Positions 1,228 through 8,173 of a DNA stretch of 8,667 bases are shown piece after piece (the first letter of the stretch is position 1; each line of letters begins with the position of its first letter). The notes under the pieces are model-generated. The model was not told where the DNA came from. It ran no database searches and worked only from the letters and a program-made list of their open reading frames with translations. The position numbers and the translations under genes are program-made. Source of the stretch: a virus (taxonomy: Duplodnaviria; Heunggongvirae; Uroviricota; Caudoviricetes); IMG/VR virus record IMGVR_UViG_2579778894_000017. One strand, given 5' to 3'.

Positions 1228-1340
1228 GCTGACCTCATTTCCCCTTAACGCCGGGGTAGCGGAACTGTTTGCTGAGAACACCGTGCGGTGTCTTGGTGGA
1301 GATTAATTTAGAATAACCTAACAAATGTAGCAAGTATTTT

Positions 1341-1360
1341 TTGTTAGATTGGTCTAACAA
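1341..1360. promoter_or_regulatory. Putative DicA operator (TTGTTAG-N6-CTAACAA) in the dicA-ydfA intergenic region, at the expected dicB-operon promoter
   Basis: Perfect 7-bp inverted repeat with a 6-bp spacer, TTGTTAGattggtCTAACAA. The same TTAG-N6-CTAA core recurs twice in the dicA-dicC intergenic region. It lies about 100 bp upstream of the ydfA start. Confidence 0.55.
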
Positions 1361-1395
1361 AAAGAGTGAGGGAATCTAAGTATCTGAAAGGAGTG

Positions 1396-1803
1396 TTATT
1401 TTATTGATTTGTTTTTACGTGCTTTAAGCATTTCTTCGAAGAGTTTATTGAAATTCTCTACTCTTGCGCGCATTTCAGACAGTAAGGCTTCCTGCTCGGA
1501 GGAGGGAAGAGCATCGAATAATTCGATCAATTCTTTGTGGCTGGGAGTTAACTCGGTTTCCACATGAAGTTCTTGTGCTGGCACTGGTGCCTTGTCTTCG
1601 TCACCAAACATTAGCCATGTAGGCGAGCACTTCAGCGCATCAGCTAAAGCAAATAACCGCTTCCCGACCGGTTGGGTTTCGTCTCTTTCCCATTGTGAAA
1701 TTGTGACGTGAGCTACCCCAGCGAGGCGTGCAGCTTCTCGTTGTGTTAGGCGTAATTCTTTTCGTCGTGCCAGAACTCGCTGGCCTAGGGTTCTTGTATC
1801 CAT
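1396..1803 (-). CDS. dicA: DicA-like HTH (XRE-family) prophage repressor
   Basis: 135-aa ORF. The N-terminal HTH (LTQREAARLAGVAHVTISQWER) and the segments LFALADALKCSPTWLMFGDEDK and EMRARVENFNKLFEEMLKARK closely match my memory of E. coli DicA, also 135 aa. Divergent from a Cro-like gene; no S24 peptidase domain. Confidence 0.85.
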   Translation of the reverse strand: MDTRTLGQRVLARRKELRLTQREAARLAGVAHVTISQWERDETQPVGKRLFALADALKCSPTWLMFGDEDKAPVPAQELHVETELTPSHKELIELFDALPSSEQEALLSEMRARVENFNKLFEEMLKARKNKSIK

Positions 1804-1883
1804 AGTTAGGTAATTCTAATTTTTCTTGACTTAGGTATCCCGCGCACATTACTGTTAGGAATATCTAACAAGAGGGGGCTTTG
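1804..1883. promoter_or_regulatory. Divergent dicA/dicC control region with two palindromic operator-like sites and a -35-like TTGACT
   Basis: TTAGgtaattCTAA at 1806-1819 and TGTTAGgaatatCTAACA at 1853-1870, a perfect 6-bp inverted repeat. TTGACT at 1826-1831 faces rightward. GAGGGGG (1872-1878) precedes the dicC ATG. Confidence 0.6.
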
Positions 1884-2111
1884 ATGCTTAAAGTTGACGC
1901 AATTACTTTTTTTGGCAGCAAAACAAAACTTGCCAATGCCGCAGGAGTGAAACTGGCAAGTGTTGCTGCATGGGGGGAACTGGTTCCTGAAGGTCGCGCG
2001 ATGCGCCTGCAAGAGGCATCCGGCGGGGAACTTCAGTACGACCCCAAAGTTTATGACGAATATCGTAAGGCAAAGCGGGCGGGGCGGTTGAACAATGAAA
2101 ATCACCCCTGA
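1884..2111 (+). CDS. dicC: DicC-like (Cro-like) regulator
   Basis: 75 aa from the ATG at 1884; the track begins at the in-frame TTG at 1881. The segment LVPEGRAMRLQEASGGELQYDPKVYDEYRK...RAGRLNNENH matches my memory of E. coli DicC. Divergent from dicA across the operator region. Confidence 0.8.
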   Translation: MLKVDAITFFGSKTKLANAAGVKLASVAAWGELVPEGRAMRLQEASGGELQYDPKVYDEYRKAKRAGRLNNENHP

Positions 2112-2616
2112 ACAGGTTTGTGAGGCTCTGGATGCCTGGGTATGCCGACCAGGAATGACACAGGAGCAGGCGACGATATTAATCACGGAAGCATTCTGGG
2201 CTCTGAAAGAACGCCCGAACATCGATGTTCAACGCGTCACGTTTAATGATGGCGAGGTTGATCAACGGGCGTTGGGCGTTAACCGGGTGAAGATATTCGA
2301 ACGCTGGAAAGCTATCGACACCAGGGATAAGCGGGAAAAATTCACGGCGCTGATTCCGGCAATTATGGAGGCTATCCGGATCAGCGATTTCAGGTTGTAT
2401 TGTGAAATTACTGACGGAAAAAGCATTACGTACATGATCGCCGGGTTAAACAAAGAATATGGTGATGTGGTGGAGTCCGGGCTGCTTTTTGCGGATCCAT
2501 CTGTTGTGGAACGTGAGACTGACGAGCTTATAGAAAAAGCTATTGCTTTCAAGCATGCGTATCGTCAGCAATACCAACAAAAAGCTGGATGGAATTATGA
2601 GCCTTCTTTTTGCTGA
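2095..2616 (+). CDS. YdaT-like protein (DUF1019; reported functional analog of lambda cII in cryptic prophages)
   Basis: 173-aa ORF directly after the cro-like gene, overlapping its 3' end by 17 nt, which is the position ydaT occupies after ydaS in Rac-type prophages. Family assignment is by position and remembered motif similarity, not a database hit. Confidence 0.6.
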   Translation: MKITPEQVCEALDAWVCRPGMTQEQATILITEAFWALKERPNIDVQRVTFNDGEVDQRALGVNRVKIFERWKAIDTRDKREKFTALIPAIMEAIRISDFRLYCEITDGKSITYMIAGLNKEYGDVVESGLLFADPSVVERETDELIEKAIAFKHAYRQQYQQKAGWNYEPSFC

Positions 2617-3562
2617 ACGCCCACTGGTTATAAACACACAGCTTGCGATGAAGATTGGCTTAAATGAAGCCATTGTGTTGCAGCAGTTGCATTACTGGTT
2701 GAGAGATACCAGTTCCGGTATGGAATGTGACGGGGTTCGCTGGATTTATAACACAACAGAACAATGGCTGGAACAGTTCCCGTTCTGGTCAGAGTCAACG
2801 TTAAAACGCGCATTTGCAAGTCTGAAAACGCTGGGGCTTTTGCGTTGCGAAAAGCTCAACAAATCAAAGCGTGATATGACTAATTTTTACACGATTAATT
2901 ACGAGAGTGAGCTTTTAGATGGTGGCAAAGTGAGCGAATCCATCAGGTCAAAATGCGCCGCTCCATCGGGTCAAAATGACACGATGGAAGAGGTCAAAAT
3001 GGCACGCTCCATTGGTTCAAAACGACCCAATGTCATCGGGTCAAAATGGCCTGATGATCTTACAGAGAATACAACAGAGATTACTACAGAGAATAAAAAC
3101 ACTTCTCGTCCGGAAGCTTCGCAACCGGACCCGCAGACGGCTGAACAGGATTTTTTAACCCGACACCCTGACGCGGTTGTGTTCAGTGCGAAAAAACGCC
3201 AGTGGGGAAGTCAGGAAGATTTGGCGTGCGCACAGTGGATCTGGGGACGAATCGTGAGTCTTTACGAGCAGGCTGCCAGCGATGATGGCGAGATCACGCG
3301 ACCGAAAGAACCAAACTGGACCGCATGGGCCAATGACGTGCGCACAATGCGGATGCTGGATGGCAGAAGCCACAGACAAATTTGCGAAATGTTTGGTCGG
3401 GTACAGCGAGATCCATTCTGGGTAAAAAACATCATGAGCCCGTCAAAGCTTCGCGAAAAATGGGACGACCTGGTCATCCGCCTGGGGCGTTCACCTGTAC
3501 AGTGTTGTGTGAATCATATTTCTGAACCGGATACCGAAATTCCGCCTGGTTTCAGGGGATAA
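2597..3562 (+). CDS. Phage replication initiator (lambda O-like replisome organizer) containing the origin iterons
   Basis: Long ORF; the preferred start is the ATG at 2597 (MSLLFAERPLV...), with the track start at 2543 as an alternative. The N-terminal region looks like a winged-helix DNA-binding domain. The central low-complexity linker (SGQNDTMEEVKMARSIGSKRPNVIGSKW) is encoded by tandem iterons, the hallmark of lambda O-type initiators. Confidence 0.75.
   Translation: MSLLFAERPLVINTQLAMKIGLNEAIVLQQLHYWLRDTSSGMECDGVRWIYNTTEQWLEQFPFWSESTLKRAFASLKTLGLLRCEKLNKSKRDMTNFYTINYESELLDGGKVSESIRSKCAAPSGQNDTMEEVKMARSIGSKRPNVIGSKWPDDLTENTTEITTENKNTSRPEASQPDPQTAEQDFLTRHPDAVVFSAKKRQWGSQEDLACAQWIWGRIVSLYEQAASDDGEITRPKEPNWTAWANDVRTMRMLDGRSHRQICEMFGRVQRDPFWVKNIMSPSKLREKWDDLVIRLGRSPVQCCVNHISEPDTEIPPGFRG
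2944..3096. repeat. Putative phage replication origin: five GGTCAAAATG iterons at about 23-bp spacing, then an AT-rich block with three 12-bp tandem repeats
   Basis: Iterons at 2946-2955, 2969-2978, 2992-3001, 3014-3024 (degenerate GGTTCAAAACG) and 3039-3048, several sharing the longer CATCGGGTCAAAATG. Followed at 3061-3096 by tacagagaatac / aacagagattac / tacagagaataa. Confidence 0.7.
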
Positions 3563-3602
3563 GTGGTGATTTTAGGGCATAAAGTAATGTTCAGGAGGAC
3601 TT

Positions 3603-4010
3603 ATGGCAAAAGTATTTACACAGGAAGAGCGGGAAAAAATTAAAGGACAGGTGGTGGAACTCGTGCGCCAGAGCGGTCGTGAGACGTTACGGCAACTGGA
3701 AGCTAAAACAGGTGCGACAAGATATCTGATGAGCGTTCTTGCCAGAGAGCTGGTTGCCAGTGGTGATGTATATCACTCTGGCTATGGGGTGTTCCCGTCA
3801 GAACGGGCTCGTAAGGACTGGCAAAACGCCCGCAAAAAACTCTCGAGGGCAAAGGTGAAGAAACCTGTTGTGGTTGATCCGGGCCTTATCTGGACATTAC
3901 CCGACGGAGAAATACGCCGCTACGACAGGCGTATGAACATAATCTGTCGCGAGTGCCGGAAGAGCGAAGTTATGCAGCGTGTATTGGCGTTCTATCAGGG
4001 ATATGCCTAG
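3603..4010 (+). CDS. Hypothetical prophage protein (135 aa), possibly DNA-binding
   Basis: ORF with a strong RBS (AGGAGG) 5 nt upstream of the ATG. Basic protein with a single CxxC (CRECRK). It occupies the slot where lambda P or a DnaC-like helicase loader would normally follow the initiator. No family recognised. Confidence 0.65.
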   Translation: MAKVFTQEEREKIKGQVVELVRQSGRETLRQLEAKTGATRYLMSVLARELVASGDVYHSGYGVFPSERARKDWQNARKKLSRAKVKKPVVVDPGLIWTLPDGEIRRYDRRMNIICRECRKSEVMQRVLAFYQGYA

Positions 4011-4085: not shown

Positions 4086-4378
4086 TAGCCTACTTGTTGG
4101 TTTTGTGTGAAAAGCAGACATTTTGAGACTCAGGATTTGTTATCAAATAAGACCAATACTTATCTATATTAATACACATTAAATACTGTGCAATACATTA
4201 TTGCATTTTATTAGATAAGCGATATTTAGGGAAAAGAAAAGTCATAGAAAACAGGCCGCTATTTGTTGTTGGATTTTATAGGCTATATCTAGATTATCTT
4301 GCCACTGCGGTCTCTGTTTACCTAACAGCTTGGGCTTCTTTGCATGCAAGTTTGTAATAACAAGAGTAATCAAACGGA

Positions 4379-5410
4379 ATGTCTATTAATCCTAAACTTA
4401 AGCGTATCGCGCGACGCTATCCAGCGTTATTCCAATATGAGTCCCCCTATATGGCAAGAAAATTAATAATATTCGGCAACGGTCTCGGTATGGCTTTAGA
4501 TCCTGCTCACTTCTCCTTAGACAGAGCGTTGGAAGAAATTTGGCATCGCCCCAATTTTTTAAAAGATATCCACAAGCAACTTATCGAGCGTTGTCTTCAG
4601 CGGCAAGGTCCACCAGAAGGAGAACATGAGTTGGATACCCTTCACCAGGCTGTCACATATTGTAAAGCTCTTGCTCAAATTGGAGAGGGGAACGTGCATT
4701 GGCTTACTGAAGATGGACTAAACTTCCCCAAAATTACCGCCACTTATATTCACAAAGTTGCAACCAGGTTGCATAATTACGATAAAGGTTTGCCACAAAG
4801 ATTCGAAAATGCGCTTGTGGAGTTTGTAAAGAACACACACTCACATATCGCGACATTAAACTATGACAAATTATTATACAATTCATTCATAGATAATGAT
4901 ATATTCAACGGGTATGATGGGGTTTTAGTTGATGGGATGCTAAGCCACGGATTTTCCTCTGCAGCGCTCGAACGGAAATACAATCGTAGGTTTGGTTATT
5001 ATTTGCACTTGCATGGTTCACCACTATTTATTAATCAGCATGAAAATGTTTTAAAACTTTCACGCTCACAACTTACTCTTGACATAGATGAACCTAGTGA
5101 GCATATAGTGTTAACTCATATAAAAAGAAAACCGTCAGTTATAGCAGCATCTAATGTTCTTTCTACGTACTGGGATTATTTGCAGTTTGCATTATTTGAA
5201 TCAGAAGAAATAATATTGTTTGGTTACTCTGGTCTCGATATTCACCTTAACCTGCTTATTCGACCTTACCTAACCTCTAAGCCTTTAAGAGTAATTGAGT
5301 GGAGCGGTGCTGGTGAACAAAACGCTCGTGAGATATATTGGAAAAACCAGTTGAGACGGGAAGTTACTGTAATTAGGTTGGATAACATCACTGATTTTAT
5401 TGATTGGTAG
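4379..5410 (+). CDS. SIR2-like (DHS-like NAD-binding fold) protein; candidate NAD+-degrading anti-phage defence effector
   Basis: 343-aa ORF in a visibly AT-rich segment. Ordered motifs typical of defence-type SIR2 domains: glycine-rich IIFGNGLG (aa 30-37), TLNYD (aa 159-163), HLHGS (aa 210-214) and FGYSGLD (aa 281-287). Start codon uncertain (4379 has a weak RBS; alternative ATG at 4451). Confidence 0.7.
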   Translation: MSINPKLKRIARRYPALFQYESPYMARKLIIFGNGLGMALDPAHFSLDRALEEIWHRPNFLKDIHKQLIERCLQRQGPPEGEHELDTLHQAVTYCKALAQIGEGNVHWLTEDGLNFPKITATYIHKVATRLHNYDKGLPQRFENALVEFVKNTHSHIATLNYDKLLYNSFIDNDIFNGYDGVLVDGMLSHGFSSAALERKYNRRFGYYLHLHGSPLFINQHENVLKLSRSQLTLDIDEPSEHIVLTHIKRKPSVIAASNVLSTYWDYLQFALFESEEIILFGYSGLDIHLNLLIRPYLTSKPLRVIEWSGAGEQNAREIYWKNQLRREVTVIRLDNITDFIDW

Positions 5411-5595: not shown

Positions 5596-5660
5596 TTAAG
5601 TAGAATTGCTGCGGGTGCTTGAGGCTGTCTGCCTCGGGCATGCCACCGTAAGGCAGACAG
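5596..5660 (+). promoter_or_regulatory. hok mRNA 5' leader: upstream complementary box and leader hairpin
   Basis: 5' GCGGGTGCTTGAGG (5611-5624) is complementary to CCTCAACGCACCCGC (5987-6001) near the mRNA 3' end, and GTTAAGT (5596-5601) to CACTTAAC (6001-6008). Hairpin CTGTCTGCC (5625-5633) / GGCAGACAG (5652-5660). Confidence 0.6.
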
Positions 5661-5689
5661 AGAAAAGCCCCAGTTAACATTACGCGTCC

Positions 5690-5760
5690 TGCAAGACGCT
5701 TAACATTAATCTGAGGCCCAATCTATGCTTCACAAACGTAGGTTAGCCTCTTACGCGCCG
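5690..5760 (-). ncRNA. Possible Sok-type antisense RNA overlapping the mok start (boundaries not determined)
   Basis: By analogy with hok/sok loci, the antitoxin RNA is encoded antisense to the mok translation-initiation region. A short GCGTC/GACGC inverted repeat and a duplicated TTAACATTA lie here. No promoter or terminator was pinned down. Confidence 0.25.
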
Positions 5761-5937
5761 AAAGGCAAGGAGAAGCAGGCTATGAAGCAGCAAAAGGCGA
5801 TGTTAATCGCCCTGATCGTCATCTGTTTAACCGTCATAGTGACGGCACTGGTAACGAGGAAAGACCTCTGCGAGGTACGAATCCGAACCGGCCAGACGGA
5901 GGTCGCTGTCTTCACAGCTTACGAACCTGAGGAGTAA
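5725..5937 (+). CDS. Mok-like reading frame (in-frame N-terminal extension of hok)
   Basis: 70-aa ORF sharing frame and stop with hok, the arrangement I recall for chromosomal mok/hok pairs. Its start sits where the antisense RNA would pair. Confidence 0.45.
   Translation: MLHKRRLASYAPKGKEKQAMKQQKAMLIALIVICLTVIVTALVTRKDLCEVRIRTGQTEVAVFTAYEPEE
5782..5937 (+). CDS. hokD: Hok/Gef-family type I toxin (51 aa), closest to HokD/RelF
   Basis: MKQQKAMLIALIVICLTVIVTALVTRKDLCEVRIRTGQTEVAVFTAYEPEE has the Hok-family signature (single TM, conserved RKDLCEV, TGQTEVAVF). AAGGAGAAG RBS upstream of the ATG at 5782. Confidence 0.9.
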   Translation: MKQQKAMLIALIVICLTVIVTALVTRKDLCEVRIRTGQTEVAVFTAYEPEE

Positions 5938-6751: not shown

Positions 6752-7801
6752 GTGCGGGTATTACTTCGACCTGTTCTGGTACCGGAACTCGGGCTGGTGG
6801 TCCTTAAGCCCGGTCGCGAATCACTGCCGGTTTTTCATTGCGGCAGGGTGCTGGTGGAGCCGGAACCGAAAAGCATGCGCGGTCTGCCGTCCGGAGTCGT
6901 CCCTGCCGTTCGCCAGCCGCTGGCGGAGGATAAATCATTACTGCCATTTTTCAGCGATGAGCGTGTGATTCGTGCTGCTGGCGGCGCTGGCGCACTGTCT
7001 GACTGGCTCCTGCGTCATGTCAAATCCTGCCAGTGGCCTCATGGTGACTACCATCACAGTGAAACCGTCATACATCGTTATGGTACCGGCGCAATGGTGT
7101 TGTGCTGGCACTGCGACAACCAGCTGCGCGACCAGACCTCCGAATCACTCGGGCAACTTGCTCACCAAAACCTGTCTGCATGGATGATTGACGTCATACG
7201 CCATGCAATGAATGGCTCGCAGGAACGGGAATTATCGCTGGCTGAATTATCCTGGTGGGCGATCCGCAATCAGGTGGCGGACGCGCTACCGGAAGCGGTA
7301 TTACGTCGTTCGCTGGGGTTGCGTGCGGAAAAAATCCGCTCAATGTACCGTGAAAGCGACATCGTACCGGGAGAGCAGACCGCCACCAGCATACTGAAAC
7401 AGCGCACAAAAAATCTTGCGCCGCTGCCTCACGCCCACCAGCAACAGAACCCGCCACAGGAAAAGACGGTGGTCAGCATTGCTGTTGATCCGGAGTCTCC
7501 GGAATCTTTAATGAAGCGACCTAAACGTCGCCGTTGGGTAAATGAGAAATATACGCGCTGGGTAAAGACACAGCCGTGTGCGTGTTGTGGTAAGCCAGCC
7601 GACGATCCCCATCACCTGATTGGTCATGGTCAGGGCGGAATAGGGACAAAAGCCCACGATATTTTCACGCTACCGTTGTGCCGGGAGCATCACAACGAAC
7701 TTCATGCTGATCCGCTGGCATTTGAAGAAAAGCATGGTTCCCAGATTGATTTAATTTTTCGTTTTCTTGATCGCGCCTTTGCAACCGGCGTGCTCGGGTA
7801 A
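6752..7801 (+). CDS. ydfU: DUF968-family prophage protein (YdfU-like) with a C-terminal HNH-like Cys/His motif
   Basis: 349-aa ORF from GTG at 6752, with GGAGG at 6744-6748. The C-terminus CACCGKPADDPHHLIGHGQGG...LPLCREHHNELH resembles an HNH/zinc-binding motif. Size matches Qin YdfU. Confidence 0.75.
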   Translation: MRVLLRPVLVPELGLVVLKPGRESLPVFHCGRVLVEPEPKSMRGLPSGVVPAVRQPLAEDKSLLPFFSDERVIRAAGGAGALSDWLLRHVKSCQWPHGDYHHSETVIHRYGTGAMVLCWHCDNQLRDQTSESLGQLAHQNLSAWMIDVIRHAMNGSQERELSLAELSWWAIRNQVADALPEAVLRRSLGLRAEKIRSMYRESDIVPGEQTATSILKQRTKNLAPLPHAHQQQNPPQEKTVVSIAVDPESPESLMKRPKRRRWVNEKYTRWVKTQPCACCGKPADDPHHLIGHGQGGIGTKAHDIFTLPLCREHHNELHADPLAFEEKHGSQIDLIFRFLDRAFATGVLG

Positions 7802-7813
7802 AAGAGGTTACTG

Positions 7814-8173
7814 ATGCGTATAGAGTTTGTTTTGCCTTACCCGCCGACGGTGAACACCTACTGGCGACGTCGTGGCAGCACATATTTTGTGTCAAAAGCC
7901 GGTGAGCGTTATCGCCGGGATGTGGCACTTATTGTTCGCCAGCAGCGGCTGAAATTAAACCTGTCCGGAAGGCTGGCGATAAAGATTATTGCAGAGCCAC
8001 CGGATAAGCGCCGCCGCGACCTGGACAATATCCTGAAGGCACCACTGGATGCGCTTACGCATGCCGGACTACTTATAGACGACGAGCAGTTTGATGAAAT
8101 CAATATTGTGCGCGGTCAGCTCGTTTCTGGTGGGCGGCTGGGCGTGAAGATTTACAAAATTGAAAGTGAGTGA
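7814..8173 (+). CDS. rusA: RusA Holliday-junction resolvase
   Basis: 119 aa containing PDKRRRDLDNILKAPLDALT, matching the catalytic acidic motif region of RusA. AGAGG RBS. Typical nin-region position upstream of Q. Confidence 0.9.
   Translation: MRIEFVLPYPPTVNTYWRRRGSTYFVSKAGERYRRDVALIVRQQRLKLNLSGRLAIKIIAEPPDKRRRDLDNILKAPLDALTHAGLLIDDEQFDEINIVRGQLVSGGRLGVKIYKIESE

Follow-up and report, generated by a model that had tools for sequence, protein, structure and literature searches.

Short tandem repeats in the middle of a protein-coding gene raise the question of whether selection holds them for the peptide or for the DNA and, if for the DNA, whether replication starts there. We addressed this question for an 8,667-nt stretch of tailed-phage DNA (IMG/VR record IMGVR_UViG_2579778894_000017), the whole of which is called the window here and supplies all position numbers. 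The repeats lie in an open reading frame (ORF) at 2597..3562 on the + strand. A preliminary description, made from the sequence alone, had reported five copies of a 10-mer followed by three AT-rich 12-mers, and had read them as a replication origin inside an O-like initiator gene. Our analysis indicates that positions 2918-3099 are very probably the vegetative replication origin of a lambdoid E. coli prophage of the mEp460 / HannyBb type, lying within the prophage's own initiator gene, in the middle part that encodes the linker. The sequence is best read as a lambda-type iteron origin with its own specificity.

Palindromic iterons in the middle of the initiator gene

Exact copies of GGTCAAAATG start at 2946, 2969, 2992 and 3039 and a degenerate core, GTTCAAAACG, starts at 3015, with no further exact copy in the window, where base composition predicts about 0.011 exact copies per strand. 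Five copies, one of them degenerate, at about 23-bp spacing in mid-ORF had been described, and that count and placement hold. The 10-mer does recur as a core, but the true repeat unit is an entire 23-mer that is nearly palindromic. A repeat search returned five such units with spacings of 23, 23, 23 and 24 nt, and their consensus, CATCGGGTCAAAATGACCCGATG, consists of two half-sites around a central AAA (CATCGGGTCA-AAA-TGACCCGATG). In the consensus 10 of 11 pairs are self-complementary, and iterons 2, 4 and 5 reach 8-9 of 11, against a mean of 2.8 dyad pairs over all 23-mers of the window, of which 0.2% reach 8. Tandem Repeats Finder (TRF) placed a period-23 array at 2926-3048 and a period-12 array (2.8 copies, 86% matches) at 3062-3095, and in the whole window it found no other repeat array exceeding about two short copies.

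The units, to which no strand was assigned, differ in quality. Iteron 1 (CATCAGGTCAAAATGCGCCGCTC, 2941..2963) has a good left and a poor right half-site, with 18/23 consensus matches and 5/11 dyad pairs, and iteron 2 (CATCGGGTCAAAATGACACGATG, 2964..2986) is a near-perfect palindrome (22/23 and 9/11). Iteron 3 (GAAGAGGTCAAAATGGCACGCTC, 2987..3009) keeps the core only (15/23 and 5/11), while iteron 4 (CATTGGTTCAAAACGACCCAATG, 3010..3032) joins a degenerate core to palindromic arms (19/23 and 8/11). Iteron 5 (CATCGGGTCAAAATGGCCTGATG, 3034..3056; 21/23 and 8/11) adjoins the 12-mers and is the least variable unit in an entropy track of relatives gathered through the 12-mer motif. A further, degenerate unit (iteron 0, GATGGTGGCAAAGTGAGCGAATC, no strand) stands in exact register at 2918..2940, 23 nt upstream of iteron 1, with 14/23 consensus matches; at least 14/23 matches are reached at 9 of 8645 window positions, 6 of which are the array itself. 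This unit is better kept in relatives L002 and L004. The array comprises five iterons and probably a sixth.

Iterons 1-5 occupy codons 115-153 of 321, and iterons and 12-mers together codons 115-167. Lambda iterons lie at about codons 117-145 of gene O, so the proposed parallel with lambda ori holds at the level of layout. The window array is collinear with the annotated lambda iterons, with the common centre TCAAAAYGA, and in both systems the iterons are palindromic with an A-rich centre (lambda TCCCTCAAAACGAGGGA; window CGGGTCAAAATGACCCG). In both, the iterons fall where the middle of the gene encodes the linker and are followed on the 3' side by A+T-rich DNA whose top strand is rich in purines; both also share the operon order cro, cII-like gene, initiator, and a homologous C-terminal protein domain. 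The two systems differ in unit size, which is 23 bp at regular 23-bp spacing in the window and about 18-19 bp in lambda, and in the putative unwinding region, a 12-nt periodic repeat in the window and a plain AT tract in lambda. The window also differs from lambda in having no P gene after the initiator and an extra DnaT-like tail on the protein.

Loss of repeats was encountered in a single form among the homologs examined. A rare natural variant (L221 1683-1810, on the contig encoding P0020; also P0018) has an exact in-frame deletion of 93 bp, the sum of the unit spacings (23+23+23+24), which joins iteron 5 to the left flank of iteron 1, so that a single hybrid iteron remains beside intact 12-mers. 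The deletion resembles the r-type ori- deletions of lambda. By analogy with lambda iteron-deletion mutants, the variant is probably an origin-defective prophage.

An O-type initiator with a different N-terminal domain

The ORF encodes 321 aa plus stop and has the same limits as the coding sequence in mEp460_ev081. That its product is O-like, as first suggested, is borne out by phrog_391 ('replication initiation O-like'), which matches residues 17-321 on profile positions 11-298 of 298 with E = 7.5e-95; the family name is an annotation. The helical C-terminal domain (3134..3487, + strand; AlphaFold2 helices at residues 183-295) is homologous to that of lambda O, since residues 147-294 align with lambda O 135-270 at 34% identity over 148 aa (BLASTP, E = 3e-27). 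The N-terminal winged-helix DNA-binding domain (residues ~1-108, encoded by 2597..2920, + strand), in contrast, has no sequence similarity to the lambda O N-domain: it gave no match to PF04492 (Phage_rep_O) at E up to 10, whereas lambda O, the positive control, scored E = 5.7e-36. Pfam and NCBIfam searches with the whole protein and with each domain, again at E up to 10, gave no useful match, and the Pfam families RepA_N, DnaB_2 and Phage_rep_org_N gave none. The N-domain does match PHROG profiles named 'DnaD-like helicase loader' (phrog_6493, E = 5.2e-37), and its modelled fold is closest to, and similar enough to be predicted as shared with, the N-terminal winged helices of plasmid Rep proteins and DnaD. 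By sequence, the protein thus belongs to the lambda O family through its C-domain and not through its N-domain.

The structurally characterized Rep proteins of staphylococcal multiresistance plasmids (PDB 4pta, 4pql, 4pt7, 5kbj), which we take to be the RepA_N family of pSK41/pTZ2162, and the N-domains of DnaD and B. subtilis DnaB have no sequence-level match to the window protein (Pfam, E up to 10). RepA_N plasmids also carry iterons within the gene. Their Rep proteins differ from the window protein in belonging to plasmids, not phages, and in their C-domain.

The gene is common: 1849 of 5426 complete E. coli genomes, about a third, carry it at 80% coverage or more, and its family comprises 4314 protein clusters, thousands of them from Enterobacteriaceae, while the RefSeq label is 'hypothetical protein' in every genome listed. 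The isolated phages HannyBb, mEp460_ev081 and PhiR42_1 carry the module at 93-94% identity. In mEp460_ev081, the sole isolate whose flanks were read, no other replication gene was found nearby.

Iteron sequence follows the initiator N-domain

An exact-match scan found the 25-mer TTACAGAGAATACAACAGAGATTAC in more than 120 viral IMG/VR contigs (L088-L207, L006 2501-2540 and L132 among them). Upstream of this shared sequence, at least six repeat classes could be told apart: class A, that of the window (GGTCAAAATGACC), A' (GGTCAATATGACC / GTTCAAAATGACC), B (GGGCAAATTGCCC), C (GGACAATTTGTCC), D, with GGGAAACC-type repeats in Stx1 phages, and E (ATGAGGAAAAACCACATAC). N-domain identity is 74-79% within A, 85-93% within B and 94% within C; it is 61-63% between A and A' and 76-79% between B and C, and the N-domains of D and E are about 25% identical to the rest or not alignable. 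Classes B and C have 14 fixed differences, all beyond residue 52; eight fall in residues 65-74 and one in the wing. Residues 65-74 run from just before the modelled helix 66-78 into that helix, the putative recognition helix. Iteron sequence thus co-varies with the N-domain clades, the pattern expected of matched initiator-iteron pairs, and the suggestion that this origin and initiator have a specificity of their own is supported at the sequence level.

The same anatomy in distant phages

A tblastn search with the N-domain returned 154 phage records, among them phages of Staphylococcus (at 50% identity), Bacillus, Listeria, Lactobacillus, Vibrio, Stenotrophomonas, Burkholderia, Flavobacterium and Bacteroides; classical lambdoid phages were absent among the matches listed. 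Absence of the repeats from homologs had been named beforehand as the outcome that would speak against an origin. The opposite was found: all 12 distant homologs examined, drawn from phages of these genera among others, have between 2 and 5 tandem repeats with dyad symmetry, 22-24 bp long, at gene nt ~300-430, and the repeats persist at 27-50% protein identity across three phyla. Examples are GGACAAAATGGCCCGAC in Staphylococcus phage P954, GTACCCAAGTTGGGTA in Bacillus and TTGCAAAATTGCAA in Bacteroides. The P954 iteron GGACAAAATGRCCCGA is almost identical to the E. coli iteron.

An unbiased scan gave a consistent picture: for 10 of 13 loci (2.7-8.7 kb each), the top periodicity in the 21-25-nt range anywhere in the locus fell at gene nt 295-426. 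In Providencia phage PSTCR8lys (L214) the strongest 23-nt periodicity lies upstream, at about nt 209 near the repressor gene; its initiator gene still has an iteron array of its own, at 1814-1959. The second part of the arrangement recurs as well. The motif AGA[GT]A occurs 3' of the last iteron in all 13 loci and in at least two copies in 11, mostly 11-13 nt apart where there are several copies. Phages of Staphylococcus, Bacillus, Burkholderia, Flavobacterium, Bacteroides, Lactobacillus and Listeria (L209, L212 and L216-L220) thus have dyad repeats of 22-24 bp followed by CAGAGA/CAGATA-type motifs about 12 nt apart, and these distant stretches often begin with (C)AATACCAGA. The initiator/origin family is unannotated and spans E. 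coli to Staphylococcus and Bacteroides phages.

The 12-mer array as candidate unwinding element and module junction

Three tandem 12-mers follow the iterons, tacagagaatac (3061), aacagagattac (3073) and tacagagaataa (3085), with the sequences first given for them. Together they form an array at 3057..3099 (units wCAGAGAnTAc, no strand) with 71% A+T and a top strand that is 67% purine. No 41-mer of the gene is less stable than 3059-3099 (dG -45.6, mean -56.5; z = 2.8), and the A+T content of this segment exceeds the 51% of the gene. The 12-mers had been described as AT-rich repeats, which they are, but AT-richness does not exhaust their conservation. In the unit matrix, no variation is seen at the synonymous third positions of the ACA and GAG codons, whereas the following codon varies so freely at its second position (N, I, S or T) that this site holds almost no information, the reverse of what protein-level selection would give. 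Where the phage is low in GC, the A+T content of the corresponding stretch does not exceed that of its gene, and the conserved property is therefore sequence and period, not base composition. Judged from these alignments, the 12-mers are conserved as sequence (wCAGAGAnTAc), beyond mere AT-richness.

Short periodic repeats directly beside initiator sites, in DNA that melts and with one strand bound by the initiator, occur in the 13-mers of oriC, the DnaA-trios and the 13-mers of RK2 oriV. The window array differs from the oriC and RK2 repeats in its 12-nt period and its CAGAGA/CAGATA core, and the likeness would be one of function only.

The array is also a place where heterologous initiator genes meet. 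The 25-mer TTACAGAGAATACAACAGAGATTAC is joined to at least six iteron/N-domain classes, one of which belongs to Stx1-converting phages with an unrelated initiator N-domain. BLAST alignments to Klebsiella phages with the same N-domain and iterons and another C-domain end at query 550-553 (window ~3092), and those to other E. coli phages with the same C-domain and another N-domain begin at query 553 (window 3095), so that the breakpoints fall at window 3092-3095. With Stx phages only 3056-3095 is in common, at 97.5% identity, and L132 is a recombinant at the 12-mer element that combines a Stx1-type N-domain with a mEp460_4F5-type C-domain. These observations are what one would expect if the array were mainly a junction for exchanging modules, N-domain with iterons on one side and C-domain on the other, and unwinding were independent of its sequence. 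That alternative contests only the specific unwinding element and is compatible with the iterons as an origin. We regard it as possible though unlikely: recombination between enterobacterial phages and those of Staphylococcus, Bacillus, Listeria, Lactobacillus, Flavobacterium and Burkholderia, in which the 12-nt AGA[GT]A pattern is also found, is implausible, and fixed synonymous beside free non-synonymous positions point to a sequence-specific DNA function rather than shared ancestry. The 12-mers are best read, on this comparative evidence, as a sequence-specific unwinding element that is also a module-exchange junction; the two roles are compatible, and conservation across phyla argues that the junction role is the lesser one.

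Replication origin or control sites

Iterons might also serve as initiator-binding control sites, acting in autoregulation by roadblock, in titration or handcuffing, or in the exclusion of related phages, with replication starting elsewhere in the prophage. Plasmid iterons are established to function in copy control as well as in initiation (reviewed in PMC4980987), cloned lambda ori fragments are reported to inhibit related phages (PMC3349717), and only 8.7 kb of the prophage is visible. We nevertheless consider control sites alone improbable, because the locus has the full anatomy of an origin, iterons with adjoining low-stability repeats, at the lambda position and next to a lambda-O-type C-domain. 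Moreover, TRF offers no competing array in the window, and the two-part anatomy follows the gene across phyla whatever its neighbours.

Constraint on the DNA rather than the peptide

The 10-mer cores of iterons 1-5 lie in codon phases 1, 0, 2, 1 and 1, that is in all three frames, and encode the unrelated peptides RSKC, GQND, EVKM, GSKR and GSKW. Among loci found through the N-domain alone, a set chosen since one anchored on the 12-mers would be circular for that stretch, third-position entropy falls from 0.287 in the N-domain to 0.073 in the iteron array and 0.044 in the 12-mers, while that of positions 1+2 is 0.027, 0.076 and 0.047, respectively. Residues 109-174, encoded by iterons and 12-mers, have an AlphaFold2 pLDDT of 25-30 and are predicted to be a disordered linker separating the folded N-domain from the helical C-domain, in a model of moderate confidence (mean pLDDT 62.5, shallow alignment). 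Loss of codon periodicity over a stretch that encodes a disordered linker indicates that the constraint acts on the DNA. A repetitive peptide linker (S-K / G-Q-N / TENT-TEIT-TENK) kept by protein selection and devoid of DNA function is accordingly very improbable: the 12-mers do all lie in phase 2, in frame, encoding TENT/TEIT/TENK, and a P-[DE]-x-[TN]-x-[ED]-I-[TN]-like peptide does recur in distant homologs, but the 23-nt period spreads the core over three frames, variation in the array has no codon periodicity, the 12-mers keep ACA and GAG throughout while varying at a second codon position (N/I/S/T), and the region is predicted disordered. We rejected the peptide-repeat explanation on the frame analysis, which already contradicts it for the 23-mers.

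Several points weigh against the origin reading as a whole. The 12-mer stretch is only moderately AT-rich at 71%, and the window has less stable DNA elsewhere; its more AT-rich DNA is an island around a SIR2-like gene. Profile annotation of the genes after the initiator revealed no P, DnaC or DnaB-like gene. The excess of AGA[GT]A motifs in the distant loci, 32 observed against 2.2 expected (Poisson 5e-26), concerns a motif chosen after inspection of the data, which makes the P-value optimistic, and several further statistics are likewise on motifs chosen after inspection. Many of the compared relatives are closely related, so that counts are not independent. Finally, a literature search for GGTCAAAATG, ACAGAGAATAC, TACAGAGATTAC and TENTTEITTE returned only unrelated primer sequences, and one for descriptions of this type of module returned background only.

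Proposed mechanism and the DnaT-like tail

By analogy with lambda, Stx phages (PMC7466680) and SPP1 (PMC6316719), we infer the following sequence of binding, unwinding and helicase recruitment. Dimers of the initiator N-terminal winged-helix domain would occupy the palindromic 23-bp iterons, of which there are five to six (half-site CATCGGGTCA, centre AAA), and build an O-some-like nucleoprotein complex. Strain from this complex, together with rightward transcription from the cro-side promoter, would open the adjacent array (wCAGAGAnTAc x3), one strand of which is probably also held by the initiator, because the 12-mers are conserved as sequence. The lambda-O-like C-domain and the DnaT-like tail would then bring in the host helicase system, since the phage has no gene for an analogue of P, DnaC or DnaB.

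The tail in question, VNHISEPDTEIPPGFRG (3506..3559, + strand), is nearly the same as the last 18 residues of E. coli DnaT, DVNTVSEPDSQIPPGFRG. A phmmer search of the PDB hit 2ru8, 6aep and 9zbt_D through the tail only, with E ~0.1 for the whole sequence, and returned nothing beyond this DnaT tail. RAST names the gene in mEp460 records after DnaT. We rejected 'DnaT / primosomal protein I' as an annotation, because only the last 18 residues align and the N- and C-domains of DnaT are unmatched; apart from the tail the two proteins differ throughout, and the window protein is an O-type initiator. The P-x-GFRG tail is also found on relatives with an unrelated C-domain (L004, L007). In the initiator of Bacillus phage vB_BthS-HD29phi (L212 1492-2265), the C-terminal EEQDDLPF resembles the acidic tip of bacterial SSB. 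Different members of the family may thus carry different host-mimicking C-terminal tails, as their sequences suggest.

In mEp460_ev081, no helicase-loader gene is annotated beside the initiator. A downstream loader or helicase gene was present in none of 9 loci with a GFRG tail and in 10 of 16 tail-less loci (one-sided Fisher P = 0.0025, from a small and non-independent sample); six tail-less lineages also have no recognisable loader. The association is suggestive and not clean. The recruitment of DnaB/DnaC by DnaT is described as unknown in PMC13377028, and the DnaT preprimosome paper has nothing on the extreme C-terminal tail. A tentative proposal, in which we place little confidence, is a loader-less ('initiator-solo') system: the DnaT-like tail (IPPGFRG) would replace a P/DnaC-type loader and plug the opened origin into the host primosome or into DnaB-DnaC loading, and the 12-nt CAGAGA array would offer a strand-specific site at which melted DNA is kept by the initiator for hand-over.

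Genomic context

The window carries immunity and replication genes of lambdoid type. A cI-like repressor gene (1396..1803, - strand; Pfam HTH_3, E = 1.2e-14, with a weak Phage_CI_repr match), named 'repressor protein C2' in mEp460_ev081, precedes a cro-like gene (1881..2111, + strand), a 76-aa ORF whose L221 counterpart carries P22_Cro and which is the first gene of the rightward operon running through the origin. It is followed by a cII-like / YdaT-family gene (2095..2616, + strand; Pfam YdaT_toxin; phrog_163 'CII-like transcriptional activator', E = 1.5e-41), the end of which overlaps the initiator start. A sigma-70 promoter scan of 1300-3700 gave no site, so that pR was not located; the 4 terminator-like hits, where 2.4 are expected, seem to be chance matches, and Rfam identified no RNA family in the origin region.

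The next gene after the initiator is DUF977 / Ren-like (3603-4010). Beyond it, the SIR2-like (SIR2_2-domain) gene at 4379-5410, in the AT-rich island 4145-5230, has weak PADLOC matches to Aga_SIR2 and PDC-S21 and is likely a defence moron. A hok/sok-type toxin-antitoxin locus follows at 5613-5937, with an Rfam sok RNA at 5613-5787 (116 bits) overlapping a 70-aa mok/hok-like ORF at 5725-5937. A DUF968 / HNH-like gene (6752-7801) and then a RusA resolvase gene (7814-8173) are usual nin-region content and recur downstream of the initiator in several relatives. At the other end of the window lies a DicF small RNA (301-352, - strand; Rfam RF00039, 72.5 bits), as in Qin-type prophages; the corresponding region of mEp460_ev081 contains a dicB gene.

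Relation to known origins and significance

Iterons with an unwinding element inside the initiator gene are textbook for lambda, Stx phages and SPP1. The Stx phages 933W and P27 have 6-iteron variants of the lambda-type ori (PMC7466680). SPP1 oriL, within gene 38 (G38P), has direct repeats bound by the origin-binding protein and an AT-rich unwinding element (PMC6316719), and thus shares with the window the placing of binding-site repeats and unwinding element in the initiator's own gene. G38P is of another protein family, the window protein having no PF09681 match, and downstream of gene 38 come genes for a loader (gp39) and a helicase (gp40), neither of which the window has. Two features go beyond the textbook: a periodic 12-nt element whose conservation spans phyla, and the combination of a DnaT-like tail with the lack of a loader gene.

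The finding makes it possible to annotate the origin in many prophages and phages, from Proteobacteria to Firmicutes and Bacteroidetes. Classes A, A', B and C form a natural series of iteron/recognition-helix pairs in which the evolution of initiator specificity can be studied, and a strand-opening role of the conserved 12-nt periodic element is testable by synonymous recoding. The absence of a loader together with the DnaT-like tail likewise gives a testable route by which such phages may load the host helicase, and, if the loader-less proposal were true, the tail would also indicate a partner-binding role for the extreme C-terminus of DnaT.

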